From contig CAJINV010000015.1 in the NCBI GenBank assembly GCA_905178155.1, forward strand, positions 2,005,730-2,069,729: a stretch of 64,000 nucleotides of DNA, in the 5' to 3' direction. Source of the stretch: Amoebophrya sp. A120 (lineage: Eukaryota; Protista; Dinoflagellata). This document shows, piece after piece, positions 186 through 63,200 of the stretch (positions within the stretch are counted from its first letter, which is position 1; each line of letters opens with the position of its first letter). The translations under genes were made by a program, and so were the position numbers. The notes under the pieces are model-generated. The model did no database searches, was not told the origin of the DNA, and saw only the letters and a program-made list of their open reading frames with translations.

Positions 186-2254
186 CTACCTCTGGGAAAT
201 CTTCTTCCAAAGCAAATAGAGGTGCAAAAGCAGTAGCAGTGCCGAGCTTGTCTCCGTCGCGGGATTCTCGCAATAATCCGGCATTTCTGTTGCACCATAC
301 GCACTACAGTCTCTCGCTTTCGGCCAATTGTAGCAGAGGTCAATGAGAAACAGGATGAGAAACGGCTTGACCCAGTTGCTCCAGATTGCTGGTATGATCG
401 AATACAAGGCTCGCCACCTGCTGCTGCTGGAAGCACTAGATGTTGATGGTACTAAAAGCACAGCGGCTGTTGACCAGATTGATGCAGTATCAGTTCCACC
501 CCCGCCTATCGCGTCGAAGACCAAAAACGGTAAACTCCAGACATACCACAGATAAAACTGGTAGTGGATTGTTTATGCTCTGCAAAAGTATCGTACTCGT
601 ACTAACTGGAAACATGCATCTTCTCTAAGGCAAAACAGCATTACAAGTTGCATTTGTGATGCTGAGCTAATTTGTAATGCAATTCATGCTACTACGATAC
701 TTTTACAATGCATATTGTTCTGGCGAACACAATGCCAGCGAAGTTTGACCACAGCATCGCTTTCACGAGCTTTGTTTCACGACAGTCCGATGAGGTTTCT
801 GTAGCTGCTGCTTGCTGTTGTGTCCCGTTGCCGTTCATCATCTCCGAATCATTTGCATTGCGTTTATCGTCGTCCAGCACTGTTTTAGTTGTGGACGTCG
901 ATGTTGATCTGCTTGTTCTACTATCGCCCCACGAGGACAAATACACCTTCCGCACGACGAGAAACCAGCCACCAAACGTGCAGACCAGCAACCAAACCGC
1001 CCAGAGTTTTGACAAAAACACCTCTTCCGGCAAGAATCTCCAGTTCACCGTCCACTTGTAAAAAAATTCCCGGCTCAAGTCAAACGACCGATGGATGTAG
1101 GCTTTCGGGTTTGCCAAGAGAAACGGAACAGCGAGGATGAGCTGGATTGCCGCCATGGTGAGGAAAAGGAAGATGGAGTTTCTGGTGATTCGCAATATCG
1201 CCGTCACAAGCCGTGGCTTTTCGTTTTGTTCCACCGTGGTCGTGCTATAATCTTCCCTAACAAACAGGTACCATGCCAGTCCCGGCGCGAAGAGTAGTAA
1301 ATTCATCTTCATGGACACTGCGATGCTGTAAAGCACACACCCCAGAAAAACCTCCCGCTCCGCGAAGAAAAACAAGCTCTGGTGCGCAAACATCATGGCC
1401 GGAAGGTCGTTGAAGAGTCGGAGCATGGTGAGGGAGTAAAGGCGTTTTGAGAATAGGGGGAAAATGGTGAAGTAAATCGGGACTTTCAGATGTGTGACGG
1501 CGAGGTTGGTCACGAAAAAGGTGTTGGTTATGAGAAAGAAGAGAAAGAGGTACTGGACAGGGCGCAACGAATCCGCATTGGTGACGCCGCCTGTGCCACG
1601 ACCTGCTGCAGCGTAGTTGTTGTCGACACTCGCGGTAGTTGTTTGCTCATCTTCTTCCCAACTGAACACTCCATTGTACCTGGTTACCGCTTTCAACCCC
1701 GAGAAGAGATACAGAAATCCGGCTGGGTAGACACACGGGCCAGTGTTGCCGATTATTTTGTAGTAATCAAACTCGCCTCGCTCGAAGAGGGATACTTGCT
1801 CCATATACGCTTTCCAGTCGATCTCCGTGTAGGGGACTTTTTTCAAAATGACGAAAGCGAAAAGGCCATGGAGGAGGGAAATGAGGATGGTGAAGAGTTG
1901 TTTCTGCCGGTTGATGAGAGAATCGAGCCTGCGGAGGAAGGTAATGATCGGGAACCCGCCCTGCTGCAATGCAGCACTTGCTGGTGGTTCTTCTTTTTGC
2001 AGCTGTAACGGATCACCACCAGTACTGGGGATGCTCTCACTAGGAGCGTCTTGGTCTTGTGCCCCATCGGTCGCAGTAGACGCGGTTCCACCGCGACGTT
2101 GTCTTGCGGACATATCCGCAGACGCAGTGAGACTGGTCGTACAACTGTCGGGGTCGGCCTTTATGTTTGTGTGGTGTCGCGCTCGCGCTGCACTAGGTTT
2201 CTTCACACTCGTAGACGCAATCTGTTCGCTCGAAAGGAGAGAGCGAGAAAGCAT
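186..2254 (-). CDS. ALG3: Dol-P-Man:Man5GlcNAc2-PP-Dol alpha-1,3-mannosyltransferase (ALG3), 2 exons
   Basis: Motifs VPYTEIDWKAYMEQV, TGPCVYPAGF, LRLFND, KMNLLLFAPG, KWTVNWRF. Removing the 146-bp element+TSD (574-719) joins VFART|IHYQFYLWYV in frame with ORF 186-524. Confidence 0.95.
574..714. mobile_element. Introner family A (non-canonical intron in ALG3)
   Basis: TIR TATGCxxTGyAAAAGTATCGTA; TSD TTGTT at 569-573 and 715-719; no GT-AG placement. Confidence 0.92.
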
Positions 2255-2720
2255 CTTTTCTTTGCGCGGATTATGGAGGTTGCTGCTGCATATTTATGTT
2301 TCATCTTGTAGTTGTTCTGCAAGTACCTCCAGCTACAGTTACTAAAGGAACTTTTTGAAAAAAAGATCCAGACCAAATATCAAGGCGGGTCGACTTTTAT
2401 TGCAGGTATAAATTCGTGATGATCTACTTCTCTGCTGATCGGGGGGAAGAGAAACACGCTAAACTCGTTATGGCTAGACCACGAAATGAACGAAACAGAA
2501 TCGATTTCCCTGCTACTTCTTACGGAAACGCGCGTGAACAACGTGACCTAGATCCAAAAAAGCGATCTATCGCCAGAAGAATCGTCATCTTGGAACAGCT
2601 GTAGCAAACACAGGACAAGAAAATAGACCTGCAGTCAGGAACGTCGACGACGGCCAGCATACTAGCGGCTTTTTTTTGAGTCTTGTGTTATTTTCCACCT
2701 ATCATACACATCATGGGAGT

Positions 2721-3912: not shown

Positions 3913-6900
3913 CTATCCCTGGTCCAGCGCGTTTTGCACGATCGTTTTCATTTTCTCCTTTTTCAACGCCTCCGATCCAAAAATGCTAAACCCCGCCTCG
4001 CAAATCTCCAAAGTGAACACCTTCACGCTCCCTCGCTGCGGAAGGTTTTCGTAGTCTTGTTTCGTTTTCCTTCGGTGGTTTGTGTTATTCGTGTTCTGCA
4101 CGGACAAGTCGTGTTCTTCTTCGTAGGTTGTCCACGGCTCGGATATTGCGGAGTTCTGTTCGTCATCTAGTACCATCTCATGGTTACCGCTGGCATCGAT
4201 GAACTCGGCATTGGCGTATGGGAAGTACCTTTATTGATGGTGTGGGGATGGAGTTTATTGTCTTTGTCATGCGAGAGATAGCATGAGAAAATGAAAATCA
4301 CATCATAGAGCATTTGGATTTGCATTGGACATCCTGCATGACGAAAAAACTAAGGTCCTTGTTCACTACACCAAAAATCTACTTCAATACTGCACAAAGA
4401 AGTCGAATCGGACCGCCGGAATGACCGTTTCTCCACTTTGCGTCATCAACCAGTCGAGCCAGTATCCTGTGCAAAAGTATCGCACTTCCTGGTATAAATT
4501 CCAGACTAGCATGACAAGTCGTGGCCTCTTGGGTAATTTAGCATGACAAATTTAATTTTTCATGCCGAGCTGATTTGTAATGCGATTGATACGTAGTAGG
4601 TACGATGCTTTTGCAGTGCATAGCCAGTCTTCTGCGATGATTTTTGCTTTTTCCGTGGCTTGCCTCAACGCGGTCAAGTCTCCGCGCAAATACGAGATCG
4701 CAACTGATTCGTCCATGTAGTAGAAGTCGCCAGATTATCCACAGTAAATTTGAACAAGAACTTACTCCACACGTACAAAGAAGTGCTAACGATGCATGAC
4801 AAAACTCTTGGCCAATCAAAATCAGCATGCTGGCAGTTCTCATGTTCATCTTTCAGGTCATTGCCAAAGAAATTTGTGATGCAGTTTGTACAGGTGCGGT
4901 TGTAAATCCTAAATTTTTATTGCGTACAAATTCGTTGTTGGCTTTCACCTTATCGAATCTCGTGTACCACACTTGCTTCAGTTCGTTCTTCAGGTAGTAC
5001 AGTCGCAACTCCTATTCTGTGCAAAAGTACCGTACTCGTCGTAATCGTAGTCATGCATTACGAATCTGCTGCGTAAGGTAGATGAGCATGACAAATTTCA
5101 TTTCTCATGCTGAGGAAATTTGTATATGCATTCATACGAATACGATACTTTTGCAGTTCATAACTCCACCGCGTGCGGGATGAACTCCTGAATCAAGATC
5201 CAGTCGAGCAGATGCGCCTGGCCGACGTACTGGTTCGAAATGGTGATGGAGTCCGACAAATCGCTCAACGCGGAGTACTATCCTGTGCAAAATGAATATC
5301 GCGCTCGTACTAATCGCAATCATGCACGACAAATCTCCTTCCCAAGCCAAATCAGCATGGCAAATTTCATGTGCTGTCATGCTGAGCGAATTTGTGTTGC
5401 GATTAGTACCAGTCTACGCAGCTACTTTTGCAATGCATACGGACAACGGGTAGTAGCGTTTCCGGCTGGTGTTGGTGTTCTGCTCCCTAACGTTGTTCCA
5501 CAGCTTTACATCCAACGCTTCCCAGCTGTACCCGAGCTTTGCGACGCCCTTCGTGATTTTTGATGTTGTACTATGGGTTTGACCGTAGTTGTTTCTGTTT
5601 TGATGCATAGCAGAAGATTCCATTTCCAGGTCGTCCTGCATCCAGAAGCCGCTACTCGGACACTTTTCCTTCTCTCGTCCCAGGTCGTCTATCAGAGCCA
5701 CATGCCTTCTGCTGTTCCGCTGTTGTTTCCGCTTTATCTTCTCCAACACTTGCACCGCTTTTTCTGCCGCTTGTGCCGGGTCTTTCTTCACGAACACGCG
5801 GGGGAAGTTCACACTGGCCGGGATTGCAAACTTCGGGTCTAAGGCCAACCCACTGGTCCAAGACTTCGCCGCTAGCTGTTGGTAGAGCAGTGCGTTGTGC
5901 GGGAAGGCGGTGTAAATCCCAAACCGTTCCGCAGCTCGCATCAGGTCGAACATCGGGGCCTGCTCTATGGCGTTCTCAACTGTTACATTCTCAACTGTTA
6001 CATGAGTTTGTGATGCAAGAATGGCAAAAGTGATAGGGGGGATCTTGCGCGTCTTGCATGACAGATTTGGCGCCGATTATCAGCCTGTTTGGCCCTTTGA
6101 GAATTTGTCATGCGAAGCAGCTTGATGGTGTCGATTCTGAAGGCAATGCTGCATGGCAAATCATGCAACGGTTGAGAATGTAACGCTTGAGAACGCCATA
6201 TGCTCCACGTACCCGGCTCCGTAGGCAGAGCCAGTTTGGTACATCGGCTCGGAGAGGAAATCGAAGCTGGACGGGTGCAAGAGCCACATGCTCGCGATTT
6301 TATCGGTCGTGTCGGTATGAATTTTTCCTGCTGGTGCAGCTGGTGCTCCTATGTTCCTTCCGCCTGCCGACAGATGCGACGTAGTACTAGAGGCACTAGA
6401 TGCAGCAGGTAAAGACGAAATCGCGGTGGAGTGTTTCATGATCGGGTTCACAATCAGGTGGAAAGACTTCGCCAAGGTGAAGCACTCGTCCGGTGTGGAG
6501 ACCCAAAACGACCAAACTTCGTAATTTTCGGACCCGAGAACTTCCTTTAACCCCAAATCGGTGAATTGGTACAAAAAGTTCGGGCTCGTGGCGAGAAACT
6601 CGGACTCCTTTGTCGCAGGCACGTATCTCCTATCCTGTACAAAAGTATCGCACTCGTATTGCAGTCATGCATTGCAGATCTTTTTCTTATAGGTAGATCT
6701 GCATTACAGATTTTATTTGTTTCTCATGCTGAGGAAATTTGTAATGCATTAGCATTTATACGAGTACGATACTTTTGCAGTTCATACCTCCCGCCCCAGC
6801 GGAACGCGAGGATGGTGAGCGCTGTCGGGGGCATCGAGGGTTTGATTTCGCTTTCTGTCAGATCTTTCCGGAAAAGATGGAGCTGTATCCTGAGAAAAAA

Positions 6901-8599
6901 CGTCCCCACCCCACAGTCAAGACGGGGGATCTGCTAGACAAATCAACCAGCTTTGGTTGTTTCGCATGACAAGTTTGGTCTCGTAGTGTAATGCTGCTTA
7001 GCTCGTTCAGCAGCATCACAGAGCTTCTAGTCTATCGCGCTGATTGGAGCATTACAAATTCCAAAACACGACTAGAGAATAAGTACTTCTCATGGGGCTC
7101 CGCATGACAAACATTTTTAACATGCAGATCTGCATGACAACTCTGGAGTGGAGACATTTTTACATAGGATAAGCTGCCTCGACTCTTCATCCGCGCAGCA
7201 AAACACCCCTTTTATCTGCTGCAAAAATATCGTACTCGTACTTCTAATTGCGTTTTTGCATTACGAATCTCGGTCTTGAGGCAAATCCGCATTACAAATT
7301 CAATCTGTAATGCTGCCTCGATTTGTAATGCAATTCATACTTGTACGATACTTTTGCAATCCATACCTTTCGCGTCCACCCAATCCGGCCAGGTGGATTT
7401 CACTTTGTAGGTCCTCTCTGCAATTGTGGCGGGTCGTTATCATGGAAGAGAAACTTACCAATACCGACCACGGACGAAACGCACTTGCAAAAACAGCAAA
7501 AAAGTATCTAAAACTGAAAAATCCAGCTCAAAACATGCAACTTGTCATGCTGAAAAAGAGATGCGCGAAATAGTTTTTTCATGCATAAAAAAGTAATTGC
7601 ACCGAGTGTAGAAGTACGTCGGTAAATTATTTCCTGCGGATGGTACAGCGGAGCCGCTTGATATTTCTTTATGCGCGGAGACTATCTCGCCCGGCATCCA
7701 CCCCTCGGTCTTCCCCATCCTTGGGCGGTATGGATTGCAAAAATGTCTGGGCCTGGAAGAGTGCAGGAGTTTGCCATGCAGATTTTGCATGGCCCATGAG
7801 GTCTGTGATGCATGTTGCCCTAGCATCAGAGATCTTGCGAGGGCTTTCTGATGCTCATACCGCATGAGAAATCCCCTCTCCGCGTAGCACAAAATGCATA
7901 TCTTTTGCTGTTCATGCAATACAGATTTTATGTAGAGTCCAGAGGTAGCATCACAAGTTGCATCCTTCCAGACCAAGACATTTTTGCATTTGATAGGCGG
8001 TAAATCCCGAAGGACCGGTCGAGCACGGCGGCATAGGCAGATTGGCCGTTATACAAGAAAAAAACTGCGTAACTATCTTTGGCTGACAACAGCATTACAA
8101 ATTTGCGCTACATGGAAAACCTGTCATGCGTGGCTTGTAAGCGACAACACACATGAAAAGAGAACTCCATAGCTGCCTGGCACGACAGGCGTAACTCTGT
8201 TGCATGTTCTGCATTTCAGAGTCACACTTACACAGTATTTTCCTTGCATAGTCGTCTTTGTTTCTGTACTCCCGGTGAAAGTAGAAGACCTGGTCGCCGA
8301 CTTGGTAGAGACGAGCGGAGGTAAACAAAACGACGCCTGGAAGGTGTAGGTACAGGAAAAGGAAAACCAAAGCGACGTGGTGGAAAGCGATTCTATAAAT
8401 CTTGGGCCACATCATGATCGTGGAAGGAGGTAGAGGCTTCTGGTCGTATGGCTCCTCGGTCCGCTTCTCGATATTGCAGGTTCTTTTCCTTTTGATCGTG
8501 GCCCGAGAAACTGCTCGGATAGAGCTGGATCGATCTTGAAGACAAGGTACTCTTTTCTAGAATCTTCACCGGACTTACTACAGGAGCTAGTTTTTTCAT
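3913..8599 (-). CDS. ATP-grasp-fold-like hypothetical protein, at least 13 exons (5' end uncertain)
   Basis: Excising 12 TIR introns gives one frame from about 8340 to the stop at 3913, with GVAKLGYSWEA, WILIQEFIPHAVELRLYY, VRFDFFV and VFTLEICE in ATP-grasp-like order. Confidence 0.65.
4232..4389. mobile_element. Degenerate introner (TATTGA ends) inside a GT-AG intron at 4229-4390
   Basis: TATTGA...TCAATA and TGGTGT/ACACCA remnants, GCATGA motifs; joins FFVQ|YFPY. Confidence 0.65.
4463..4622. mobile_element. Introner family A
   Basis: TIR TATCCTGTGCAAAAGTATCG; TSD GCCAG; joins EDW|LDWL. Confidence 0.9.
4736..4926. mobile_element. Introner family H (degenerate)
   Basis: TATCCACAGTAAATTT...AAATTTTTATTGCGTA; TSD CAGAT/CAAAT; frame restored. 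Confidence 0.8.
5013..5162. mobile_element. Introner family A
   Basis: TSD ACTCC; joins HAVE|LRLYY. Confidence 0.9.
5279..5439. mobile_element. Introner family A (eroded); GT-AG solution 5278-5440
   Basis: TATCCTGTGCAAAA...TTTTGCAATGCATA; joins YPLS|YSAL. Confidence 0.82.
5966..6200. mobile_element. Introner family D
   Basis: About 40-bp TIR TATGGCGTTCTCAAxxGTTACATTCTCAAC; TSD TGCTC; joins YVEQ|APMFD. Confidence 0.93.
6631..6786. mobile_element. Introner family A
   Basis: TSD TCTCC/CCTCC; joins WGGR|YVPA. Confidence 0.9.
6886..7171. mobile_element. Introner family C
   Basis: TIR TATCCTGAGAAAAAACGTCCCCAC; TSD AGCTG; joins RQL|HLF. Confidence 0.92.
7213..7365. mobile_element. Introner family A
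   Basis: TSD CCTTT; joins GRER|GVLC. Confidence 0.9.
7454..7626. mobile_element. Degenerate TIR intron (TACCGAC/GTCGGTA), boundaries approximate
   Basis: Short inverted repeat, TTGTCATGC motif; a 173-bp removal restores frame (GNNF|SSM). Confidence 0.55.
7729..7995. mobile_element. Introner family B
   Basis: TIR TATxxxxTGCAAAAATGTCT(G/T)GG(C/T)CTGGAAG; TSD GGCGG; joins GIYR|PRMG. Confidence 0.92.
8050..8250. mobile_element. Introner family F
   Basis: TIR TAT(A/G)CAAG(A/G)AAA(A/T)ACTG(C/T)GTAA; TSD GCCGT/GTCGT; joins RNKD|GQSA. Confidence 0.88.
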
Positions 8600-8818
8600 T
8601 TTGATTTTTTATTTTTTCGAAGAACGTAAAAGTAGTACCCTGCTTCGAAGATGAAAACAGAAACAGTTGCAATTGCCTCTCCAGGATGTTGAATAAAAGC
8701 ACTGACTCTCTTTGTCTCTCAACAGCACGGCAGCGCACTCGCCGAATAACATAGTTGTACTGAAGACAACTCATTGCCGCAACTGCTCCCACTTCATCGA
8801 TCCAACGCCACCAGTATG

Positions 8819-8947
8819 TATAGCCTGCTCAAGCTCAGTTGTTACAATCTCAAACGTTTACGCAAAGAATCTGGAATGCAAAACGTAGTGGGAAATCTGG
8901 TTTACCCCTACTCCCAGAGGATTGCCGCGCGACATGATCTAAGTGCC
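8819..8947. mobile_element. Truncated relic of the 9424 element (D-like), inverted, apparently intergenic
   Basis: TATAGCCTGCTCAAG..GTTACAATCTCAAACG..CTACTCCCAGAGGATTGC resembles the reverse complement of the right half of the 9424 element; no second TIR. Confidence 0.65.
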
Positions 8948-9423: not shown

Positions 9424-9675
9424 TATGACTTGCTCAAACGTTACAATCTCAAACGTTACAATAGAATCTGAGACTTGTCTTGCATGATCAACATGACAGA
9501 CTCGGACAGCATTCCACTTTCTGCAATACAAATTTCACCAGATTGTAGTGCGGATTGGGACTCCAGCACTTGTCATGCGCAATCCTGTGGGAGTAGGGTA
9601 GATCATGCACTTCTTGCAACACAAATTCCAGACTCTATTGTCACGCTTGAGATTGTAACACCTGAGCAAGTTATA
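9424..9675. mobile_element. Introner (D-like) immediately 3' of the DUF285 gene 1 stop codon
   Basis: About 47-bp TIR; TSD CTTGA at 9419-9423 and 9676-9680. Confidence 0.9.
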
Positions 9676-9683
9676 CTTGAGTT

Positions 9684-45902: not shown

Positions 45903-48628
45903 TCAAATCTGCCGGAACTCTTTTCCACTGACGATGTGATACAACAGTCGATACTGCTTCTCGTGTTCAACCACAGCGTTCATTTTTTTTCCCCCCGGAG
46001 GAACCAAAACGTCGAAGTTGAGTTTTTTCTCGCAGAACCGCCGAAGCTTCTGCATCATGTGCATGGTGTCATCCAGAAAGGGTTTTTCGAGCAACGCCAG
46101 ACAGGCAAAGACTTCCCCGAATAAAATTTCGATTTTTCTCCCGTTCTCCACCACCTCGGACAACAGACACTGTCCATCTTGCATCGCGTTGGCGCGCGAA
46201 ATGAGCTGATTCACTTTCAACGTGAGTTGTTTTCCAATCAGGATCGGGTTCTGTCGGTGGTCCGGGGACAAAAGCGTTTGGTGGATGTAGCTGAGCATTG
46301 AGCTGTTGACGTTGATTTCATCATTTAGCATGCTGGTCGTTGTTGTGCAGGCAGTTGTTGCATCTGGTGCTGCATTTTGTAGTTTCACCGCCACCGCCTT
46401 GTGGGTCTTAGAACTTCCTTCCGCATGGAATTCGTCTGACGGTAAAGATTTTGTTCCGTCCTCCTTCAGCTCGGCATCGTCAGAGCTGCCAAAAGTAGCA
46501 GTTTTTTGAGCCGACAACAAAGTCAAATCTTGTTGCTGCTCGTGTTGCTTGTCTTCTTCTTGTAGCTCCTCATCTATTTTTTCGACTGCCGCATCAGCCT
46601 GATCTTCATGATCTCCGTCGCCGTCCTCCGAGGGGATTTCTTCTTCATCATTTGGCTCTTGTTCGAAAATTTCCACCCCGTCCGACCCCGCATCTTCCTC
46701 TTCCTCGTCTGAGGAACCGTCGCTGTTTTCGCTTCCATCTTTGCCGAGAAGCGTGAAATCGAAAACGGTCTTCTGCTTCTTGTATCTCAGCATAGTTTCG
46801 GATTTGCGATGAAGGGAGTGCTGTTTTCCTTTCCCTTTCTTCTTGACGGGCTGGGGCATGGGATCCACCTCTTTATCGAATTGATCGGATTCTTCATCAC
46901 TATCGTCATCGTCGTCGGCTACGGACGAATTGTCGTGTAGCTCCGCAAACAAGTTGTCCTTGTCCTCTTCCAGCATCTCCACTACTTCTCCATCGCTTTC
47001 ATCGTCATCCACCTCCGCGCTCTCTTCATCCGGCGCATCAGCATCTGCCAGTGGCGAACTTGTTGTAACTGGTTTCTGTATTTCCGCCTGCAGCTTCGCT
47101 CGCAATTCTCCAAACTTTTCCAGGAACTGAATCTCCTCTGCATTCGGGCTGACCATTTTCCGCTGCATGTCCGACCACGACGTCTCTTGGAACAGTCTGG
47201 GGCTGACCTTGACCATCTTCCGCTGCATGTCCGACCACGACGTCTCTTGGAACAGTCTCGCGGTCGCAGAAATGGCAGGTTTGGAAGTAATACCACTGTG
47301 CTGCTCCTGGAAGTGGTCTTGTTTCTGTTCATTTGCGTCCTTCAGTTTGCCTTGGTCTTTGGCCAGTGCCGTCGTGGTGGTTTCTGGCTCTTGCAGCAGC
47401 GTTGATGGCCTCGTTGCATCCGCATCTACAGTAGTTGCTCCAGTACAAGTTCCACTGTCCGCCGGGAGCTGCACACCAGCACCTGTCGCGGTGGTCTGAT
47501 TCATCTTGCCGCTCGGGGGCAGCTGCTCCGGTGCAGCTTGTTCCGGGGCATTCACAGACTTATCGTTCTCCAGCTGCTTTATTTTCCGCCTGCTCGCCTT
47601 CTCCTCCACCTCCTATGGATTGCAAAAGTATCGTACTCGTATCAATGCATTACAAATTTTCTCAGCATGAAAAATAAAATTTGTAATGCGGATTTACCTT
47701 AAGAGCAAGATTTGTAATGCACGTTTGCGATTACTACGAGTACGATACTTTTGCACAGGATACCTCCTTCGCAACGACAACTTTCGGGCACTGGTACAGC
47801 CGCTCGTACTGTATATGGAAGCGTCAGGTTTGAAATCGTCAAAGTTGAAATGATTTGTCATGCATAAAATGCAAGGCATGAAGTGCCTGTCTTGCCGGGA
47901 TGGCAAGTGAGGCCGCGTGTCAGCCTGTTTAGGGTTTGAAGTAGAGCTGCTAAAGGAGCATGACAAAAGCAGTCGTCTGTGCCCAAACAGCATGACTAAT
48001 TGGATTTCGGTGCTCGGAAAATTTGTGATGCGCCGCTTGGAAATTGGGTTTCCAACTGGTATACATTTTATGCATGACAAATCATTTCAACTTTGTCGAT
48101 TTCAAACCTGACGCTTCCATACTGTACGCGCCTTAAATATTCGATCGCGTCCAAATCTTCAAGCTTCTCCTTTCCCCAGTCCGGTTTTTTCGGCGGTTTT
48201 TCCTGCCCATCTCGCTCGTCGATCAGGGCAAAACACTGCCGACCGATAGGCTCGTCGTCTTCGGAGGAAGTGCTGTCAGACGGCGCGCGGTCATGTGCTT
48301 CCCACTCTTCTTCTGATTCCTCGTAGTTGTTCTTCGTGCAATGATTTTGGTCGCCGTGTTGTTTTTCATTTTTTTGCTCCGCATCAGAACTGGTGTCAAG
48401 AAACCCGCTGCCTCTGTCTTCGAAACTGGAATCGAGGTCCAGATCAGTCGCGCGGTTCATCTGGCGCTGTTTGTTGCTGTTCTCCCCAAGAACTGTATCT
48501 TCCATTGTGGAGGTAGTCGTAGCTTCTATCACGACCGCTTTTGAAGATCCATCAGGCTTTTCCAACTTCGCCTGTTCCTTTGCCCGTTGCCGGGCTTCCT
48601 GGTTCTTCTGCCCGCCACGACGGCCCAT
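45903..48628 (-). CDS. GEMIN2: Gemin2/SIP1 (SMN-interacting snRNP assembly factor)-like protein with acidic expansions, 3 exons
   Basis: Spliced N-terminal motif EYLRRVQ|YERLYQCPKVVVA and C-terminal FACLALLEKPF..MQKLRRFCE..LLYHIVS..FRQ match the Gemin2 EYLRRVQ..CPDVVVA and ALLACLEKPL motifs. Confidence 0.8.
47151..47258. repeat. In-frame 60-bp-period duplication in Gemin2 (RLFQETSWSDMQRKMV x2)
   Basis: 48-bp block at 47151 and 47211 with one mismatch. Confidence 0.9.
47614..47762. mobile_element. Introner family A; GT-AG compatible
   Basis: TSD CCTCC (GGAG|G on the coding strand). Confidence 0.93.
47814..48121. mobile_element. Introner family I with near-perfect TIRs
   Basis: TSD CTGTA; interrupts EYLRRVQ|YE. 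Confidence 0.93.
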
Positions 48629-49726: not shown

Positions 49727-52700
49727 TCATTTGTACACAAGTTTCACACTCGGAATCTGCACATCAATGTCGTCTGCGTCTGTGCTGGTAACTTCAATCG
49801 CGAGGAACTTCTTGTACGCCGGCAGTTTTGTTTTGGTCATATGCAATGCAAAAGCATCGCACTAGTGTCAATTGCATTACAAATTAGCCACGCATTACAA
49901 ATTAAATTTGTAATGCTGAACTACCTTGGCATGGAGATTTGTAATGCATAAATGCAATCACTACGAGTACGATACTTTTGCACAGGATAGGTCACCGTCT
50001 CAAACAAGTCCGTGACCTTTTCCGCGGTTCTCTTTTTGTGCGACGGCAGAAACGCGTTGTACAAACACGCGTTGCCGGACGAGAGAATCACGATGTCGCA
50101 CCCGTACCGGTCCTGAATGGTGTCGATCAGTTTTTTCAGCGTGATGTCGTATCCTGTGTAAAAGTATCGCACTCGTATTGCAATCATGCATTACAAATAT
50201 CTTTCTCAAGGCAAATCAGCATTACAAATTCAATTTGTAATGCTGAGAAAATTTGTGATGCATTTCTACTAGTACTTTTACTTTTGCAATTCATATGTCG
50301 CCACTGTCCACGATCACCTTGTCCCAGCTCGTAAAGCCCTCCGGAATTGCCCGCACCGGGCCCGCCAGGATCGGGTCCATGTCGCGGGACTTTACCCGGA
50401 TCGGCTCCGAAGGTTCTGAGAGCACGAAGAGCGGCAGGGCGAGGTTCACAAACGCATTTTTGAAGGGCTCGAGCAGTTTCGCGTCGAATTTGGTGGAGTC
50501 CAAATCCGGGTGCTGCAGCTGCAGGGCGACGATCTTGTAGAGCTCGCAGAGCACCAAACCCGTGATCATCGCGGTAGTAGTGGCGATGGCCGGGATGATT
50601 TTGCCCGCAATCATTTTCACCTTCATAAAATCCGCCTCCTGAATGCTGTAATTCCGCGCGCGGAGGTTGGCGCAGGCGGCGATGAAGGCGATGTGGAAAT
50701 TTGTGTCGTCGTCCTTCTCGAAATCAATCGGGAATAAGGTTCGCAGCTGGGTAGTTTCACTGGCTGCAGACACTTTTGCCAGCAGCTCGGCGGAAAGCGC
50801 GTCGGCTGTGATAGAGCAGTTTGGATTTGGATTTTGATGCTCAGAACGATTTCATAGTACTTCAAGTTGTGTACTGATTACGAGAACAAAAGGATCGTGG
50901 AAATGCGTAAAAACCGCTGCTCCACCTCGAGAGTCGTTGTCGTCGAGCGTCAAATCTAGCAACAGCATGCAGTAGGATACGGAAGGGATTCCTCTAATTA
51001 CCTTTAGTCAAAAGCTCTTGTACCTGCAATTGTATCGTCTGCCGCTCCTTCTTCCACAGTGTCATTGTCATTCACTTTGATTTTCACTCCCTGCTTTGCT
51101 TGAAACGGCTCCACCGTGCAGCCTTTCGCCAGTTTCCGAATCACCTCCTTGTCTTGCACGACCTCCTCACCGAGGTTGTTCAGCAGCAAATTGACGCAAC
51201 CGTGAATGTACCCCAGATGCGTTTCATCAGAGCTGTCAAACCCGATCACCCGCGGCATTCTTTTCGGCCCGGACCAGAACAGCGCGCCCTCGGAGGTCAC
51301 GTGGTCTGCTGGGAAGTTGTGCAGCAGTTGGCCAATCTGGTGGCAGAAATCTTCCTGGAATTGGTTGACCGCGTATTGGGTCAGGGTTTGCTTCAACTGG
51401 TCACTACTCGTGGATTTCTCAACCAACATTCTCTTCACTGCCCTCAACTTGGTCACCTGTGCGGACGCTGCGGATTCTTGCTTCAGTTTTTGCAGAAATT
51501 TCTCCGGATTTTCGAGGAAAGTGTTGACCTCTTGGGCCGCATCCACGAAGCACTTCTGGAAGCTGTCGCGGGCCCACTCGATGGTGTGCTCAATTTGGTG
51601 CGGGAAATGCTGTTTTGATTTTTCATTCATGTCGTTCTTATGCCATGGGAACTACAACTACACTACAAACATAAAGCGCTTTGCATCCAAAAGATTATGC
51701 ATTTCATCAACTATTTGATTTGCAGCTGTCATCTCTGACTTTGTCATCTTTACCACGATCATCATAGTACGAGTACCTTCATCGTGCACAGCGGTATGCT
51801 TTCTTCTGGCGGATCCTGCGAGTCTCCGTAACTTTGCGTCAAGTGTGGCAGCACCACCTGGCTGTTTCCCTTCGTGCCGAGGGTCCCACTTTCGAGCAGG
51901 GGTCGCTCGTACCAGACGCACTTGCTGTCTACGTACAATCTCGCCTGCACGTTATCTAAAGCGTTGATGACGCAGTCCTGACGGTGCCATATCCCACAAA
52001 AAAACTGCTCCACTGTGATGATTTTGAAAGATCTGCATCACAAGTTTGTTACACATGACAGTGAAAATCTGTCATGCGCGCTTTTCAAGAGAAAACACGC
52101 TTGAAAATCCAATGTATTGCAGGTGTAGCAAGACAACTAGTTCTGTGTTCCATTTTCTGCATCACAAGTTCACAGTGAAACAGTTTTTTCTTGCGATATG
52201 CCAAAACTCGTCGTTAAAGGTGTCCTCGGTGTCCGGTCCCACCCGCACCTCCAGCTATCCCCTGTGAAAACGTAGTCACCCCAGAGCTCATGTAATGCAG
52301 ATATGCAACTGCAGGAACATTTGTGATGCGCAGCTCCATGGCAGGCGTTTCCAACCTTATTTTGGATTTTGTGATGTTGTAATCAGGATCAGAAAATGGC
52401 TTTGTCGTGCGGCTGCCTTTGCTAAACTGCGCTACAAGAGTCATGCGCGACTTCCAAAACTTCTGAATTTGTGTTGCTAAGTTCCCAACTTGACTCTGGG
52501 GTCGGGACGTTTTTACTTAGGATATCAGCGCGTTCACATTCAGTGCGCTGTTAAACTCCTTCGCTGATTCGCAGGCGGTGGAGGACTTGGCGGACCCGAC
52601 ATGCTCCCGGTGGAACAGAAACTGTCGGTTCAAATTGGACACCTCAATCCGGTCCATGTCGGTACAAGTGAGCTTCCCTGATGATGAAGATGAGGAGCCT

Positions 52701-55593
52701 GTCGCGCAACACCCCATCAACGCCAACCCCTTCAAAAACTCGCACCCCAACGCGCCCGCGCCGACGACGAAAAGGTTGAGCGATTGGAGCTTTTTCTGAA
52801 AACTTTCGCCAAAGATGGCAATCTGGTCGGCGTACCGGCTGGACTGCATGTTCAAGGTTAGTACATCCCCTACGTTATCGTTGATGCCCGGCATGATGAG
52901 CTCGAACATGTCGAGGTAGAGGTACTGGTGTAGCGGCGTGTACTTCCCCGTAAATTTCACGACCTCCTGCGCGATCAGCCCGCCGAGAAAGGCCGCGAAG
53001 CAGGGCAGAGAGCACTTTTCGTATTTCTGTATTTTCGCAATCAACTCCTCACTGACTTCGGTCTCACTAATTGGGAAGTTGGTCTCCGGCACCTGCTTCA
53101 TTTGCTCCAAATGGGTTTTCGCGGCGTCAACTGCTGATGTTTTTTGTTCTCGGGCAATTCGTACCCCTTCAAACGCGAGATGCATCTGCTCGGGACGCCC
53201 GATCTTGCTGAAATCGCACATGGGAAGGGCGTACTCGCTAGGGGCAACTGGGTTCAAGCGAGAGTCTTGCCAGGAGCGGAATTTCATGGGCTTCGGGACT
53301 TTCACTTGAGTCACAAGGCCCTCCCGCGTATACTGACCAAAAGCGGAGACGTCCTGGGAAGTAGATGGTGATTTCTTTGCATTCGAAATGTGTCCTTGAG
53401 CATCAATAAACCATCGAGCATGCTGCCTAAAAATTCTCATAAATTCTATATGACAAAGAGTTGTCAGTCTCCAATAACAGGAGCTTCCTTCAAAATTGCT
53501 ACTAATCCTACTGACCTAGTACCTTCACTCCTTCTGGCAGCTTTAGCACGAATTGGTATGGCCCGGTCACTCGAATTTCGTACTGTTTGTCGTTAATCCC
53601 GGTCATGCCCTCGACCTCCCGAAACGTTACGAAATCGCCGTCCTCGAACCCGTGCCGCTTGCTCTCGTGCGTCAACACTTCCCCCTTTTCGGAGATGTTC
53701 GCGATGATGGCCGTTTTTGGTTCCTCGCCGTTGCTGTCGCGGATCAAAAACTCGTTGCCAAAGTCCACAAAAACTTTCGCCGCCAGACCCGCATTCTCGA
53801 CAAAAATAAAGCCGGTGCTGCTGGCCCGGCATTTCTCATTCAGGTCGGTTATTTGCTGCGTTGCAAGTGGTATTCCGTCGGAAAGTATTCACAGTAAATC
53901 TACTCCCGTAAACGTACAAATGTGGTCTCTGCATGACAAAACTTAGCTCCGATCCTAGTTTAGCATGACAAGTGTTACAGTCCCAATTGGAAAAATTTGT
54001 GATGCATCTTGTACATGTACGGGAGATTTGTATTGCATAGAAAGCACAACGACGTCGAAATCCTGACTCGGTTTCAAATCCGCCAAGGACTTCACGCTCG
54101 AGTCGACCACTATCAAATGCAAAAATGTCTGGGTCTGGAAACTTGTGATGCAAGTCCGTGAACAATAAGTGCTCTGTAATGCGCCGCCAAGCATGGCAAG
54201 TTTTTTCGTGCTTCTGTGCTGCGTATTCCGCATGAGAAGCTGCGCTTTTGCATGACAGGCAAGAGGACCTCTTGGTGGCCACGCAATACAGAGTGCAGAG
54301 CCATGCCAGACTAGCATGACAAATCTCGCAAAAATCTCCCTGACCGAGACTACATATTTGCATTTGATAACCACCGTCACGGTCACATACGGATTCAGCT
54401 TCTGGAGCTTGGCGCAGCAGGCCTGGGCCCGGGTTTTTTTTTGCTTCACATCTTCCTCCGTGATGTAGAAATTGCGGCCCAAATCGCCCAGCTGGCAAAT
54501 CTCGGTGTCGTAGAGGAGAACCGCTTTGGGGCCAGCGAGCTGTTACAGTGAAAAATGCCCCCGCCCCCAAAGTTGGAATAACTTGTGATGCGAAGTTTCC
54601 AAATGAAAACTTTTTGCCATGCATGAAAGGAGCGTGAATCTTTCTGATACAGAGTCTAGTAGGCGTACATAGCATCGCTTGCATGAGAAGCGCTGTTCTT
54701 GCTGGGGTCTTTTGCAATACAAATTTTTGCTGTTCACAGTTGAAAATCTGTGATGCTGATAGCCGCGAGAGGGCGAGTGTTTCATTTGGAAACGTTTGCA
54801 ATACAAGTGCGCCCAAGGTCTGGCGTGGGGGCATTTTTCATTGTAATACGAGCACCAGATTCTTTGCGACCTCAATCCCCACGCCGGACAAACCCTGGAT
54901 GCAGACACGGAGTTTCACGAGCCTGCAGTTCCAGTTGTCGAAATTTGTATATATGTATGAAAAAAGTGATTTTTTGCATTTCTACTGATGAACTACGGAA
55001 CTGTAAGTTAGAACTACAAAACTTCTCATCAAGACCACATCGCTGCTGAATTTTCATGGTAGTTGCACAACTTCCAGATGTTGCTCGTGGTTGGGCAGGG
55101 TATTACCAATAGAATCGGGGGCAATACACAGTTGCTATGTAGTAACGAACAAGCGAGACTAGTACTTCTTACCTGCCCATCGTCTCCATTCCGAAGGTTC
55201 CGATTTGCCGTGAGTAGAGATCCTTGTTGGTCTATGCAGTGGGAAAAAAAGACCTAATTTTTGTGATGCCTTGTTCCTTAGTGCTTGAGTAATCAGATTC
55301 TTCGAGATGACGCAGTTTGTCACGCATCTTCGTCCAACGAATTTGCTATGCTCGACGTAAATAGACAATAGACGAGTTTGCTATGCTCGACGTAAAAGTC
55401 ATGTTTATGCAGCCACCACTTCGTATGATGCCTGCTACGATGTTGCAGCATAGCTGACTCTGCAATGCTTTTGATGCTTCTGGTGATCTTCGTGATGCGC
55501 GAAGAATTTATGCAAATAAAGCAGGCCGGTTTATTATGGTCTTGCAGCTGATATGATCTCCGGCTCCCGGGAATCGTCCTTCATCTCAACCAT
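49727..55593 (-). CDS. UBA1: Ubiquitin-activating enzyme E1, 13 exons (8 introner introns and 4 GT-AG introns)
   Basis: Reconstructed [59 protein letters not shown], catalytic PLCTMKHFP (Cys about 51786-51788), [25 protein letters not shown] introns at 54923-55172, 53354-53522, 51610-51776 and 50806-51023. Confidence 0.96.
49840..49989. mobile_element. Introner family A (UBA1)
   Basis: TSD GGTCA; joins ETVT|KTK. Confidence 0.92.
50150..50295. mobile_element. Introner family A (UBA1)
   Basis: TSD TGTCG; joins SGD|ITL. Confidence 0.93.
51990..52198. mobile_element. Introner family F-like (UBA1)
   Basis: TSD TGCCA; joins DEFWH|RQD. Confidence 0.92.
52256..52524. mobile_element. Introner family C (UBA1)
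   Basis: TSD CCAGC/TCAGC; joins VNAL|EVRVG. Confidence 0.92.
53886..54039. mobile_element. Introner family H (UBA1)
   Basis: TSD GAAAG; joins VVVLS|DG. Confidence 0.92.
54111..54369. mobile_element. Introner family B (UBA1)
   Basis: TSD ACCAC; joins VTVV|DSS. Confidence 0.92.
54541..54848. mobile_element. Introner, singleton type (TIR T(A/G)TTACA(A/G)TGAAAAATGCCCCC) (UBA1)
   Basis: TSD CGAGC; joins NLVL|AGPK. Confidence 0.92.
55233..55553. mobile_element. Eroded introner forming the first UBA1 intron
   Basis: TAT...ATA ends, TSD TGGTC/TGATC, many TGATGC motifs; joins EPEI|NKDLYSRQ. Confidence 0.78.
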
Positions 55594-57282: not shown

Positions 57283-60200
57283 TCACACCGAAAGCGAAAA
57301 TCCACTCAGGGACCGTTTGCTCGGCGTGTCGGCGTGTTTTTTTAAATGAAAACGACTTTCCGCTCTGGACTGGTCGGATGTGAGTGGGTACGGAGCAGCA
57401 ACAGCAGCACCGGACGTGGCTTGTTCGTCATGCTCCCCTGCGCCGGAGGTGGTCAGCTTCGTTTTCTCCAGACTGGAAGAAGGGGAAGTAGAGTCTTCTA
57501 CTTCATCCAGCTTCTCTTCCGAATCCCATCCCGTCCAGTCGTACGGTGTAAAACCGGTCCAGTCCGACCGCGCCGAAAACCTCTCACGGTACTTCTCCAT
57601 CCAATCTTCCGCTGTAGCCTCCTCCGGGTTCAGCTCCATTCCCCACTTAAGCAGGGCCATAGCGTGCTGTTGGTAGGCTTGTGCCTTTTCTTCAGCGGCA
57701 AGATTCTGCCACACTTCAAGCTGCATGCGCGCCACGTCGGCGCCTTCTGACGTCGGCACGAGGGCCCCGTATTCCAAGAGCTCAGCTGCCGGATCCCAAA
57801 ACCAATGTGCGAAAAAATTGCACAAAAAAATCCGTTGTTCTGACGCGTCAGCCGCACGAGCAGCAGAGCCGCAGTGTCCGGAGATCATTTCGAGGTAGCC
57901 CAGGGGATCCGGCAGCAATTGCAATGCGCGCTGCACCGAAATGTTGTCCTCCCCTACCAGTGTGAACATTTTCCCATCCATGATGCTTTTCAGGCACGCG
58001 AGGCCGTCCACCATGCACGTCATGGCGAAGCCGACAGCGGCATTTTTCGGAGTGCGACGGGAGAAGCTGAAGCCCGGAGTGCTGGCCGCAGTTTCGTCGC
58101 CGGAAGGAGCGGAAGAGGCAGGAGTTGTACTCGGCATTTTTGGCTCCATCCACAAAACCAGCTGATTGCCCTCTTCATCCTCTTCATTCCCGCTCGTAGC
58201 GAACATCATCGGGTCCACTAGTGATCCGCCTCCCATCGTGACGAACCAGGGGAACTTGGGGGCACCACGAGCATCACCCTCCGGGAACATGATTTCGTGG
58301 CTGTGCCCCGATACTGGAGGAAAATCCCCGCTTTCGGCCAACATCGTGTCGTCGTACGCTTCGCCCAACGTCGTGCCCGATTTCTCCTTGTTTCCAGTTC
58401 CCGCTTTCACAACCTTCCTGCCCGTTCTTTTCGCCGTCAGTTTATTCCGACGGCTAGCACGGGCTTGCAAGAACGCTGAAGAGGAGGCTCCTTCCCCGGA
58501 TAGCTCCTCGTCCTGCGACGAAAGTAGACTCAGCATCCAGTCGGGAAGTAGCTGTGGGGCTGCTAGGCTTTGCCCAGCATCAGCACCTTCATCGTCCTCC
58601 ACGACGACTCTCATCCACTTGGGAAAGTGCTGACTGGCCGCGTCCTGTGCGATTGTGGCAGCGCACTGCTGCAGATCGATGATGCAGAGGAGCACGGATG
58701 TCACGCCGACTTCTAGAAGTGTTTGATTTTCCTCTGTAGACAGCAGTGTCCGCGACACAAAGTCTCTCGTGCTCCGTTGTATGTGTTGTTTCATTTCTTC
58801 ATCCTCGGTTTCTGACTTAGGTTGTTCTTGTTCGATGCCACTCTCCGACGTTTCGCTGCTTCCTTGTTGCAGCTCCGAGACGGGACCACGACCATGTTGC
58901 AGACCACTGAGCTCTTGTGCCATGAACACCTCTTCCACGGTCATCGGCTTGGCGAGAAGTTCGGTTGTCAATGCCGCTGCGAGTTTTTCCTCGACTGAAG
59001 ATGCTGCTGCTGTACCTGCTGGATCGGAGGTGGGTGGACTAGTACTAGCCAGTCCCGCAGCAATCACCACTCCCGCTGCAATCTGCTCCGGCTGCAAGTG
59101 GTCACCTTCCGGGAACCGCTCGCGGACGCCGGTTAGCATGGCGCTGAGGGTTGGAACGCCGGAATGATCAAGAGCAGTATCCGTACTGCTAGTACCGATT
59201 TCCCCTGCAAGAAGTTTTCCTGCACAGGCGACCTGGCTGACCATGCAAAGCAGCCCGGTTCGGACAGCCGCCTGGGAGGAATGTTCGTCTTGTTCTTCTG
59301 CGGTTGTACTAAACGCCTTGGATAACCACTGCGGCAACAGATCTTGCTCCTGGGGCGGGTGCAGATGCTCCATTGAGGACAGAAAATCCGGATCAGCAAG
59401 ATGACGAGAGGTCTTCGCAAGGAGAAAGCTACTGGCACTTGTACCAGGTTCTCGCTCGGCTTCGGGAACAACGTCGTGGTAATCCCTGTACGCCCCCGCC
59501 AATTCCATGTGGAGCGCATCCCTCGCCACTTGGGCCGCACAGTATCCACAGTAAATTTCCCGCACACGTACAAACGCAATCTCTGCATGACAAAACTGGG
59601 CTTCGATCGTAGTTTAGCATCACAAGTGTCACACCCCAAATTGGTGAAATTTGTGATGCACTTTGTACATGTACGGAAAATTTGTATTGCATACACAGGG
59701 GCCGAACTTCTTCTCGAAAACGCATTTTAAAGCAGTCATCGGACTCCTCCACGAAAGGCTTTCAGTGGCGGTGCGCAAATTTGTGTACATGCTAATACTC
59801 CCGAGCAGCTCCTCCTCCATTTCTGCGTCAGGCGCGGCGCCGGACGCCAGCGCGAAGTCGATTCCCCCAAGCAGTTCCGACATGAGCACTTCAGTGACCA
59901 CGGGAACCAGCATCAAACCCGGCATTTCCATTGCCCCGCGCACCTGCTCCTCCGTGACCAAGCTATCAATCGCAACGTCCAGCGGGGTGCGCGCAAGACT
60001 GGTCAGCGCCGCCCCCAGATCGGCGTGCGGGACGTCAGAGAGCGCGCCGGTGAGAAGCTCCTTCAGGCAGGCTGCCTGCGACACCCCGCACACCAGGGCG
60101 ACCTCGGTGATCTTCTTGGTCTCCTCGGGAAGAGAACTATGGACAAGGAGAATTTGATACCGTGGTGCTGTCGCCCATTTCGAATAACGAACAACTACAC

Positions 60201-63200
60201 ATGGCACTACTGCAAGATACAAAAGAAGCTTCTTCGGTTGACATTATTTGCGTCAAAAGCATTACAACAACATGACTTACCGGCCTTCAACAAGTTGCGG
60301 TAGAGTAACATCATTCCATGTAATGCGTTTTGTAAGTAGTCGGGACGACAGAGTACACGGTAACTTTTTTTCTATTCCATAACTAGCTTCCAGAAGATCC
60401 GTGGTCCCGCTCTCTGCGGCGGCTGCGATGCGGCTTTTGAACTGCAGTTTGGCCGCTTCCAGCACGTCCCTCTGGGCTCGCGGTCCCGGCTTTTCATCTG
60501 AGAGGGCGCGCAGACTGGAGGCTGAAAAAGCATGCATTTCCGGCTTTTTCATTCCAATTCCCTCCGGCAATGACGAGTTGTAGGCTCCTGTGCTCATCAA
60601 GGCATGCGTCGCCTGAGCCGCAGCAAAGTCAGAATCTTTGCCCAAGATCGCAGCAGCAGCTTCTTTGATGGCAACATCATGATCTTCGTCTTTTTTCTCA
60701 TCATCGTCCTTTTCGAGAAAGGAAGCTGTGGAGGCCCCTGCTGCTGCAGCTTGTTCCGCGCTGGTGCTGCAGTCGTCACCAGTGTTTGCCAAGACGGAGG
60801 CTTCGTCCGCCATCGCAGGTTTGTAGTCGAGAGAAACGACGGAGCCGAGCGCCATCCCCGCGAGTTCCCCCGTCCAAAACATCTTGGCTTGCTGGCAATC
60901 ACTAGACCCGCTGCACTTCTCCCGGAGAGTGTGAAGCAGATCAGAAGACGCGCGACCGCTGCTCAGCACCGTTTTCAGGCACTTGGCCTTCCCCGCAGTC
61001 AGCGAGCGGAAGACGAATCCGAATTCGTAGGTCAAATTCTCAGAGTCCGGATCTTTCACGCATTGCGCACTGTACAACGGCTTCGACTCCACGAATACAT
61101 CGAAGTTGGTTGTCGTCAGAGAAAAAAACGCCTTCAAGGCCTCCTTCACGGGTGTCTCCAGAGCGTTGAGAATCATGTTTGTCGGATCTTGCGGTGGTAC
61201 TGTGTGTGTGCCGATCGAATACCCGGGCTGCTCCCCGCATTTTGTCACACTCATTGTGCCTGGAAAGGACACCTTGACGGATCCGTGCAGTTGGTATTGG
61301 TCGTCGTTTGCCCCCGCGCACTGCTGCTCCGTTTTCGACACGGGTAAGACATTCGCTGTGTAGTGCTTCGTGAAGCCGGCGGTCCCCACGTTCCCGCTCA
61401 CACCGTACTGGCAAAGCACGTTCTTTGCCGTTTCGAACCCCGCGCACCCGAGCTCCGAAGACTCGCCCCAGATGACCTGGGTGTAATGTCCGATGGCGCC
61501 GCCAGTGTTATCGTCGGCGTGCAGGGCTGCGCCCTTCCCCAGGGCAGCTGCTTCGTTGGTCCACGCACCGACTGGGGTGGTGATGCCGCTCGTGCTCAAG
61601 GAGCTCACTGTGACACTAAGATCAGACACGCTCCCAACCGGCCAACCCTGGGTGTACACGATTTCGTCCTCGTACCACATCTTCGTCGCCCGCCCCCAGG
61701 TCGCCGGGTTCAAATCATTATCACCGCCAAACCCAAAAGCGATGTTCTCGCCGAAACTCCCCGTGAATCCGAATTTGTTCTGTCTGGTAGATTTCGGGGA
61801 GTGGTAGCTGTCGGACGCGGGAAAACCGCACATGACTCTCGCCGGGTCGTTGCATTGCGCGTACTGCGCACTGTTCGTCGCCAAGTCTTCGTTCCACACG
61901 AGGGGCGGGGCGTTGTGCAGACAGCGGTACAGGTTGTGCAGCAAAAGGGTTTCGCGCCACTCTTCCGGCGCCGCTTGGGAGATCACGGATTTAGTAGTGC
62001 CCGGGCTGGTAATGCCGCCGGTGGCGCCGTCAACAACAGCAGGAAGATCTTCTTCCGTATCGCCCCCATCGCCATCTTCTTGTCCCCCCGCCACATCTGG
62101 TTCTACTCCCTCCTCAGCTGGCGTTTGCTCCGGCGCTTCCGTTTCTACTTCATCTTCGTGCGGTGACGTTCCGTCCTCGGGCGAAGATTCATCATCCGGA
62201 CTTTGTGGTTCCTCTGTTTGCTGTTCCGCTTCACCAGGAGGAGCACCCGCTGCACCATCACCACCATCCGCTTCAACCTCTTCCTCCTCTTTCGAGCCTC
62301 CCCATGGAAGAGGGCCGTCAAAAGAGTCAAATGCGGCAGCAGCTGCTTCGTTTGCCGCCTGAAAGAGGTTTTCCGCATGCGAGAGAGAGTCGAGAATCCA
62401 GCTGGAAAGCTGTTTTTCAATCTTGTCCGTTTGCCGCACGAGCCAGGCTGGCGCGCCGCCCAGCGTGGTCGCCCGCGTCAGGAGTTCCATCACGCAGTAG
62501 GGGTTGTGCGTCACGCCTGCTCTTGCGCACTGGGCCGCTGTCTCGGTGTCGTCAGAAGCGAAACTGCCCGTCGCGGTCACCAAATTGTCAATCATTCCGT
62601 CATCCACGGTAACGGAGCCGGGGCTGTGAAGCATCAAATCAGCCTATGCATTGCAAAAGCACAGCTATCGCTATCGTACCGGTTGTACAGCGCCTACCTG
62701 CTAGTAGTTCTAGACCTTAGGTTCTTGCGTGATACAGTCACAAAAAATTATCAATTACCTTATAATCGAAATTGTTCTGGGAGTGAGACAAAAGATCTTG
62801 GCTGTGCACATCATGATGCTGCGGGGCAGCAATTACCAGTACGACTGCGATACTTGTTCTTGTTTTGCGATTGATACATCAGTCACATCGACGAGGCCAG
62901 CTTCAACTTCGGATTGGAGCTCTGCGGCCACTTCCTCAGGTGGGGTGCCGAATGGTGGCGGCGGGCCGCCGTCCACGATTTCCGGAGGGGGGTGATCGCC
63001 CAGGCTTCCGCCCTCGCCCGGACCACCTGCGGCCGGTTCGCCCGCATCAGCCGGTTCGCCCGCATCAGCCGGTTCGCCCGCATCAGCCGGCTCGCCCGCA
63101 TCGGCCGGTTCGCCCGCATCAGCCGGTTCGCCCGCATCAGCCGGCTCGCCCGCATCGGCCGGTTCGCCCGCATCGGCCGGTTCGCTCGCAGCCGGTTCGC

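Follow-up and report, generated by a model that had tools for sequence, protein, structure and literature searches.

Introner lineages of Amoebophrya sp. A120 share an internal site on a helical lattice, probably a DNA-binding site for mobilisation

The stretch of DNA analysed here (the window) covers 64,000 nucleotides of Amoebophrya sp. A120 (contig CAJINV010000015.1, positions 2,005,730 to 2,069,729) and contains 53 introners. Nearly all of them start with TAT, end with ATA and are flanked by copies of a 5-bp duplication. Among them, 46 were located by a search for the ends, five were added by hand, one (55233) was recognised via RNA and one (62645) by inspection; elements are named here by their first position, and the strand is left unassigned for all 53. 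Being short, non-coding, bounded by terminal inverted repeats (TIRs) and target duplications and dispersed both ways, they have the properties of MITEs (miniature transposable elements with inverted repeats) or non-autonomous TIR elements. They also show the published features of introners, namely the TAT inverted repeat, the direct repeat at the boundary and removal from mRNA at non-canonical boundaries. Inside these elements recurs the motif GCATBACAA, whose shape, spacing and probable role are the subject of this work.

The long open reading frames (ORFs) of the window lie on the minus strand. Deleting an element together with 5 bp opens long frames over most joints, whereas deleting 4 or 6 mostly fails. 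RNA contigs skip exactly the element length plus 5 nt at 10 of the 12 elements between 44100 and 64000, the other two (59543 and 62645) being uncovered. These contigs derive from four runs of one sample, and their RNA status is guessed, but they also join four GT-AG introns. In the raw RNA run X9, 97 reads map, nearly all on one element, and contribute no splice information. The UBA1-like gene at 49300-55300 contains eight introners and four GT-AG introns, all joined in the RNA contigs; a weak joint at 49835-50297, found in one run, skips a whole exon of this gene.

The window contains 112 exact matches to GCATBACAA on both strands, against 2.34 expected and at most six in 100 dinucleotide shuffles. 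Inside the 53 elements (11,047 bp) lie 106 of them (9.6 per kb), and the remaining 52,953 bp hold six (0.11 per kb). The match at 7542, among these six, falls in a truncated relic of the 150-bp family (E 1e-6), and truncated introner remnants at 7520-7610 and 4250-4340 explain one or perhaps two of them. When single-base neighbours are counted and a weight matrix is iterated, the site widens to GCAWBRSAR, often with ATT after it. At a score of 10, its frequency is 18.8 per kb in the first 51 elements versus 0.47 per kb in the background, and shuffled elements yield 1.55 occurrences altogether. The exact motif is found in 47 of the 53 elements and the weight-matrix site in 52, whereas none of the four GT-AG introns shown by RNA contains a site scoring at least 8. 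These results bear out the preliminary description of this DNA, which had reported that the motif recurs inside unrelated element families and is rare elsewhere; the refuting outcome it named, a density no higher than in shuffled sequence, is not observed. Its multi-copy cases are equally correct (two motifs in 24264, three in 43607, four in 47814), and its fifth base of G, T or C agrees with the absence of A from that position in every match, although the true site is wider than described.

A pattern scan of metagenome contigs, covering 21 of 64 parts, gives at least 143 loci (L001-L143), of which 121 (456 kb including overlaps, from one assembly) carry the families of the window; they represent a larger sample rather than a second species, and copy counts refer to the matches listed. 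The other 22 loci, from other assemblies, are chance matches by appearance, and viral contigs give 0 and 17 pattern matches, none with homology to the elements. The profile search produced 651 hits, which after removal of 92 duplicates, 59 partial copies, 41 copies at edges and three others leave 456 full copies, 50 of them from the window. The later tests exclude 24 copies whose duplications match at two or fewer of five positions and, wherever bias mattered, the copies holding the seed pair of the scan. TAT..ATA ends are present in 405 of the 456 copies and TGT..ATA ends in seven. Perfect duplications measure 5 bp in 309 copies, 4 bp in two and 6 bp in none, and at least four of five positions match in 408; this length is independent of the search because the flanks lie outside the profile models. 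The inverted repeat is composed of TAT, seven variable bases and an A run, the last being present in most lineages and absent in C and G. No target-site preference is seen in the window or the other copies. The subfamilies group into 11 lineages, 10 of which occur in the window, lineage K being absent from it.

Lineage A is represented by 18 elements. Three exact motifs are found in 574..714 (the 150 bp type, within an ALG3-like gene), 4463..4622 (32 and 34 bp apart), 33141..33292 and 47614..47762 (154 nt skipped by RNA contigs), as well as in three elements of the F5 type, 16176..16324 (outside an ORF), 53886..54039 (159 nt skipped) and 59543..59693 (32 and 34 bp apart). Four motifs are contained in 49840..49989 (155 nt skipped; in the UBA1-like gene) and in 50150..50295, which lies in the opposite orientation (151 nt skipped). 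Two occur in 4736..4926 (F5 type, partly decayed), 7213..7365, 37115..37259 and the oppositely oriented 13598..13742, and a single exact one in 5013..5162 and 6631..6786. The elements 5279..5439 and 13258..13399 have no exact motif; the former has four inner matrix sites and the latter three. The decayed 62645..62876 contains no inner site.

Lineage B comprises 7729..7995 (one exact motif, seven matrix sites), 17121..17381 (two motifs), 29650..29949 (one exact), 40486..40740 (one), 43607..43872 (three) and 54111..54369 (two; RNA contigs skip 264 nt). To lineage C belong 33712..34018 (the 308 bp type; four motifs, no open frame across), 37632..37938 (three) and 47814..48121 (four; 313 nt skipped). 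Lineage D includes 8050..8250 and 33361..33562 with one motif each, and 34936..35146, 41189..41399 and 51990..52198 with two each, the last with 214 nt skipped. In lineage E, 6886..7171 has four motifs, every site pointing one way; 22853..23137 has three, 23557..23836 four, 35808..36087 no exact motif and four matrix sites, and 52256..52524 one exact motif (274 nt skipped), its mismatched duplication helping to fix the cut. Lineage F consists of 24264..24372 (109 bp) and 29097..29210, each with two motifs 32 bp apart, 35625..35744 and 42001..42122 with two each, and 40792..40902 with one exact motif. Lineage G contains 5966..6200 (two), 9424..9675 (one; just 3' of a DUF285 ORF), 21516..21783 (F12; no exact motif, three matrix sites), 21867..22115 (two) and 28810..29045 (three). 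The members of lineage H are 32066..32226 (no exact motif, three matrix sites), 42581..42747 (one) and 43415..43575 (four). Lineage I is represented by 31692..32013 (322 bp), with two exact motifs and six matrix sites forming three pairs of 32-33 bp, and lineage J by 54541..54848 (308 bp, one TGT end), with one exact motif and 313 nt skipped. The decayed 55233..55553, assigned to no lineage, has one exact motif and five weak sites in all, and 326 nt are skipped there.

The sites follow a spacing grammar. Direct pairs at 30-33 bp are found in ten of the 13 family representatives of the window (null 2.1; look-elsewhere p 0.002) and convergent pairs at 41-43 bp in six (null 0.7; p 0.005), while divergent pairs at 38-42 bp have no significance after correction. 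The 30-33 bp pair is present in the consensus of 10 of the 11 lineages, including lineage K; in lineage F, three of five window copies have it, and the consensus averages to 35. Moreover, an outward-pointing end site is located at 40-42, 48-53 or 61-63 bp in 10 of the 11 lineages. Scanned for periods of 8 to 14 bp, the consensus maps of the 11 lineages give their maximum at 10.4 bp (R 0.44, 97 pairs; for the best of the scan in 150 null runs, mean 0.22 and maximum 0.35), with the phase centre on the GC step. The signal persists when only inverted pairs are taken (p 0.002) and in direct pairs other than those at 30-33 bp (p 0.028). In 259 copies that are neither from the window nor seed-bearing, the period peaks at 10.3-10.4 bp and is about zero at 11, and 159 of them contain the 30-33 bp pair. 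The helical periodicity that the preliminary description proposed to look for is thus present. A 10.4-bp lattice is that of B-form DNA, and the period together with the spacing grammar points to a motif read as double-stranded DNA.

GCAWBRSAR is also the top 6- to 8-mer common to the consensus interiors of the 11 lineages, and after masking of the sites no second shared word in these interiors rises above shuffles. Between lineages, profile hits are centred on the motif and none reaches E<0.01 after site masking, a blunt test which also erases the true link between F0 and F5. The preliminary description had set its claim against the possibility that the families are alignable descendants of one element. 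With more copies some window families do merge (F0/F5, F7/F9 and F4/F12), but between lineages only the motif arrays align. Shared ancestry of the lineages is likely, and a motif left over neutrally from a common ancestor or a local duplication, with no present binder, would fit the merging families, the termini and duplication length common to all, and the likeness of lineages C and J. The latter (47814-48121 and 54541-54848) have the same length of 305-308 bp and a nearly identical site map, with spacers that are not alignable. However, sites and distances are kept while the spacers are close to chance identity (0.31-0.33 between lineages versus 0.27 shuffled), and in young copies compared with the family consensus the core sites differ by 4.8% and the spacers by 18.3%. 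Tandem duplication as the origin of the 31-32 bp spacing was also rejected, the spacers not being tandem copies (identity 0.28-0.32). Because neutral decay cannot preserve the sites alone, the relic explanation is largely refuted, and we assign it very little probability.

A different possibility is that the motif acts in RNA, where an RNA-binding splicing factor would read it or a stem formed by inverted copies would bring the splice sites together. Inverted sites lengthen the predicted hairpin in lineage A (z -4.05), and the core CATG is palindromic, giving half a site on either strand. Orientation bias is likewise in its favour: lineage F (109-122 bp; 24264, 29097, 35625, 40792, 42001 and locus copies) has its motifs antisense to the transcript in all nine called copies (p 0.004 uncorrected, 22 families tested), and subfamily S14 lies in one orientation in six of six. 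Yet most families lie in both orientations relative to the transcript, and sites of both senses are present in 219 of the 267 strand-called copies, only antisense ones in 31, only sense ones in 16 and none in one. Convergent pairs give no sign of covariation, their arms matching at variable positions 411 times where 414 are expected. Direct repeats, unable to pair, are the commonest arrangement; lineage E has only these, its sites do not extend the hairpin (fold z -1.91), and the period is 10.4, not 11. An RNA signal is therefore improbable.

The ends of the elements behave differently from the inner sites. On the transcript, the 5' TA shows no change in 422 bases versus 135 of 3987 core bases (3.4%). 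Positions 1-2 at the 5' end have one change versus 12 at their 3' counterpart, and position 3 has eight versus one. In addition, all six TGT-type ends lie on the 3' side, and an A three bases from the transcript 3' end is almost invariant. This asymmetry suggests that splicing reads the element ends. Given a uniform register, the mismatched duplications of 52256 and 55233 would set the position of cutting at 1-2 nt upstream of the transcript TAT. The terminal pattern might correspond to a donor with +2U/+3A and to a branch A very near the acceptor, both as possibilities only. A purine bias just upstream of the transcript TAT, seen in 39 of 53 window elements, failed to replicate (114 of 217 other copies) and was discarded.

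Two decayed introns without sites, 62645 and L030:8784-8981, keep their ends and have stops in all frames with exons in frame on either side; removal of both is inferred from the reading frame only. They come from seven motif-free end pairs, one of them a sub-interval of another element, where about one is expected from controls; in the frame test only these two are clear and L030:9061 is ambiguous. The decayed introners at 62644-62877 and at 8784-8981 and 9061-9494 of L030 retain both ends, and AG can be made from the final A and a flanking G. This points to a way in which introners may become ordinary introns, gaining one codon. The element at 62645, readable as a 234-nt GT-AG intron, fits the earlier expectation that loss of the motif goes with gain of GT-AG ends, but L030:8784-8981, in which by reading of the sequence no GT donor is in frame, does not, and a GT/GC-AG register is available in 10 of the 53 elements whatever their motif content.

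Insertion age was marked by mismatch of the duplication, giving 209 young and 93 old non-seed copies. From young to old, change at conserved columns rises from 3.0 to 5.5% in the core, 9.1 to 12.0% in spacers and 4.3 to 7.1% in TIRs, and from 0.8 to 1.5% at the terminal TAT/ATA. The age excess is 1.9 points for the core (0.6-3.2), 2.6 for the spacer (0.7-4.3), 2.6 for the TIR and 0.4 for the termini (-0.8 to 1.6). The four invariant motif bases are changed at 119 of 4081 positions in young and 78 of 1710 in old copies (2.9 to 4.6%; p 0.002). The motif thus decays with insertion age about like the spacer, while the 5' TA stays invariant. The earlier suggestion that the motif is the recognition code for intron removal finds no support, given the introns with sites of one sense, the lack of covariation, this decay with age and the two site-free decayed introns whose removal the frames imply. 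The part of that suggestion which stands is a shared binding site for one trans-acting factor, in the form of a DNA site, as the helical phase, the fixed end distances and the conservation amid diverging spacers indicate.

We consider it probable, from these sequence patterns, that the sites are sub-terminal DNA-binding sites of one shared mobilising protein, most plausibly an integrase-like transposase, and that splicing is read from the ends. Binding cooperatively along a single helix face, several units of the protein would draw together both ends of a 110-320 bp element so that they can be cut. New copies would arise only from those with an intact array, and site and spacing would be kept while spacers drift, selection acting on the transposing copies. 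After insertion, recognition of the intron would pass to its ends (the end hairpin and terminal TA/ATA), cutting would fall 1-2 nt upstream of TAT, and the inner sites would be largely dispensable. For the mobilising protein we predict an integrase-like DDE transposase or a helper of one, because TA/TG ends and duplications of 4-6 bp mark that group (PMC10045372, PMC6839031). A candidate for the cognate autonomous element is the A120 family fam38 (808-810 bp), listed with integrase-like ORFs as 'Ginger, 5-bp TSD, TA/TA termini', where TSD denotes target-site duplication (PMC12130899, supplement file 8).

Several observations weigh against this assignment. None of the 89 ORFs of at least 230 aa from the metagenome loci matches a transposase or integrase by Pfam. 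No long element with matched ends has a recognisable transposase, and none turned up as part of an autonomous element in the roughly 0.5 Mb examined. The long matched-end elements, considered as coding transposons, proved to be ordinary introners with nested inserts. Such inserts, of about 140-2200 bp, are located in L075 (476-2934), L045 (8771), L026 (3591), L029 (6184 and 1255) and L005 (1220); that of L075 has a 415-aa ORF without a Pfam match. Pairs within one element are not independent, and possible common ancestry of the lineages also limits the independence of the 11 maps. The age-excess confidence intervals of core (0.6-3.2%) and termini (-0.8 to 1.6%) overlap, and core breakage (3.4%) is under half of the mismatch between duplication pairs (7.4-7.9%); the sites may be under some constraint once inserted. 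As 13.5% of sites are broken and each element has 4-5, a rule of 'at least one site' would be undetectable. The decayed but spliced 55233 retains five weak sites, all sense, and the single orientation of lineage F points the same way. Finally, no transposase was found in A120 by Farhat 2021 (PMC7789003), where general transposase-mediated mobilisation is argued against.

Some of these points would suit a host DNA-binding or chromatin protein that sits on the phased arrays in place, for example wrapping or bending intron DNA, and marks co-transcriptional removal or serves both mobilisation and splicing. The period of 10.3-10.4 bp also suits DNA wrapped on a protein core, as in nucleosomal periodicity, and the commonest family measures 149 bp. 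One or no inner site is found in only nine of 432 copies, and both the low core breakage relative to duplication mismatch and the lack of a known transposase in A120 (PMC7789003) agree with such a factor. Against it, the sites decay with age about as fast as spacers, the losses per copy follow an independent binomial, two decayed introns retain their ends and no site, and the site is rare outside the elements and absent from the four GT-AG introns. A host factor of this kind is accordingly unlikely, though it merits more weight than either the RNA or the relic explanation.

The mobilising-protein reading could be extended to all abundant A120 introner families as one system with two codes, in which a phased DNA array, recognised by a single protein, permits any sequence of 110-320 bp to spread and bare ends license seamless removal. 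The single protein would then be an unclassified integrase-like transposase (TA ends, 5-bp duplication) or a host factor doing that job. In the boldest form, the same DNA-bound protein would flag co-transcriptional splicing, and intron identity would lie partly at the DNA level. We regard this extension as doubtful. The A120 spliceosome is reported to be without U1 (PMC7789003).

Other features of the window were also noted. In the region 33670-34923, the 33712 introner sits within a GC-rich insert of 1.2 kb, bordered by copies of an exon-like piece (identical over 30 bp at 33670 and 34894); a 149-codon frame inside the insert has no Pfam match. The neighbouring genes at 9684-11777 and 12613-14925 have similar-looking repeats, DUF285 being confirmed for the first; introners occur in the coding part of the second only. 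Tandem repeats are visible by eye at 21220-21450 and 63030-63220 (units of about 57 bp and, coding, about 18 bp).

The findings bear on the spread and splicing of the tens of thousands of non-canonical introns in A120, for which the genome paper reports no transposase, no U1 and introner families that could not be related (PMC7789003). One site with a fixed helical grammar would tie at least 11 lineages to one trans-acting protein, and offers a bait for that protein as well as a signature for autonomous elements. The separation of an inner array, apparently for jumping, from ends apparently for splicing makes both halves directly testable.

Sub-terminal transposase sites are also present in Emigrant, maize Ac/Ds and Spm, Hermes, and the ends of Tn7 and Mu; shared with the A120 elements are internal sites that recur both ways round and at set distances from the termini of a short non-coding element. 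Lemi1 proteins bind such sub-terminal repeats of the Emigrant MITE cooperatively (PMC1636448). The A120 elements differ from such systems in that one site is common to 11 lineages with different TIR interiors, sites occupy the element throughout at 10.4-bp lattice positions, and splicing is seamless; their binding protein is a prediction. IS3EU/GingerRoot resembles them in its TA..TA and occasional TG..CA termini (PMC10045372, PMC6839031), but its duplications are usually 6 bp, against 5 bp here (none of 456 at 6 bp). Ginger2/TDD has duplications of 4-5 bp according to PMC10045372 and 6 according to PMC6839031, but its ends are TG..CA, whereas TGT..ATA is found in seven of 456 copies here.

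The closest likeness is to the published A120 introners. Farhat 2021 (PMC7789003) describes inverted repeats of TAT, seven variable bases and a run of three or more A, short direct repeats (3-5 nt) and non-canonical boundaries. The family lengths in Gozashti 2025 (PMC12130899), about 106, 149, 160, 209, 234, 252-260, 278 and 305-321 bp in the 41 of 58 A120 rows of supplement file 8 compared here, also correspond; that work considers the A120 families to be of diverse origins. In their accessible text, both accounts differ from the present one in having no shared internal motif, spacing rule or uniform 5-bp duplication. The motif, the lattice and the split between mobility and splicing are likewise without description in the accessible text of PMC7789003, PMC12130899 (including a word search of its supplement), PMC11453091 and PMC12005148, and in listings on the motif with transposon and on Amoebophrya splicing since 2021, a scope that leaves aside Roy 2023 (Curr Biol), figures such as the logos of Farhat and supplement files 13-14 of Gozashti. 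Within this literature, the introners themselves are already known, and what the present analysis adds is their shared site, its helical lattice and the division between signals for mobility and signals for splicing.

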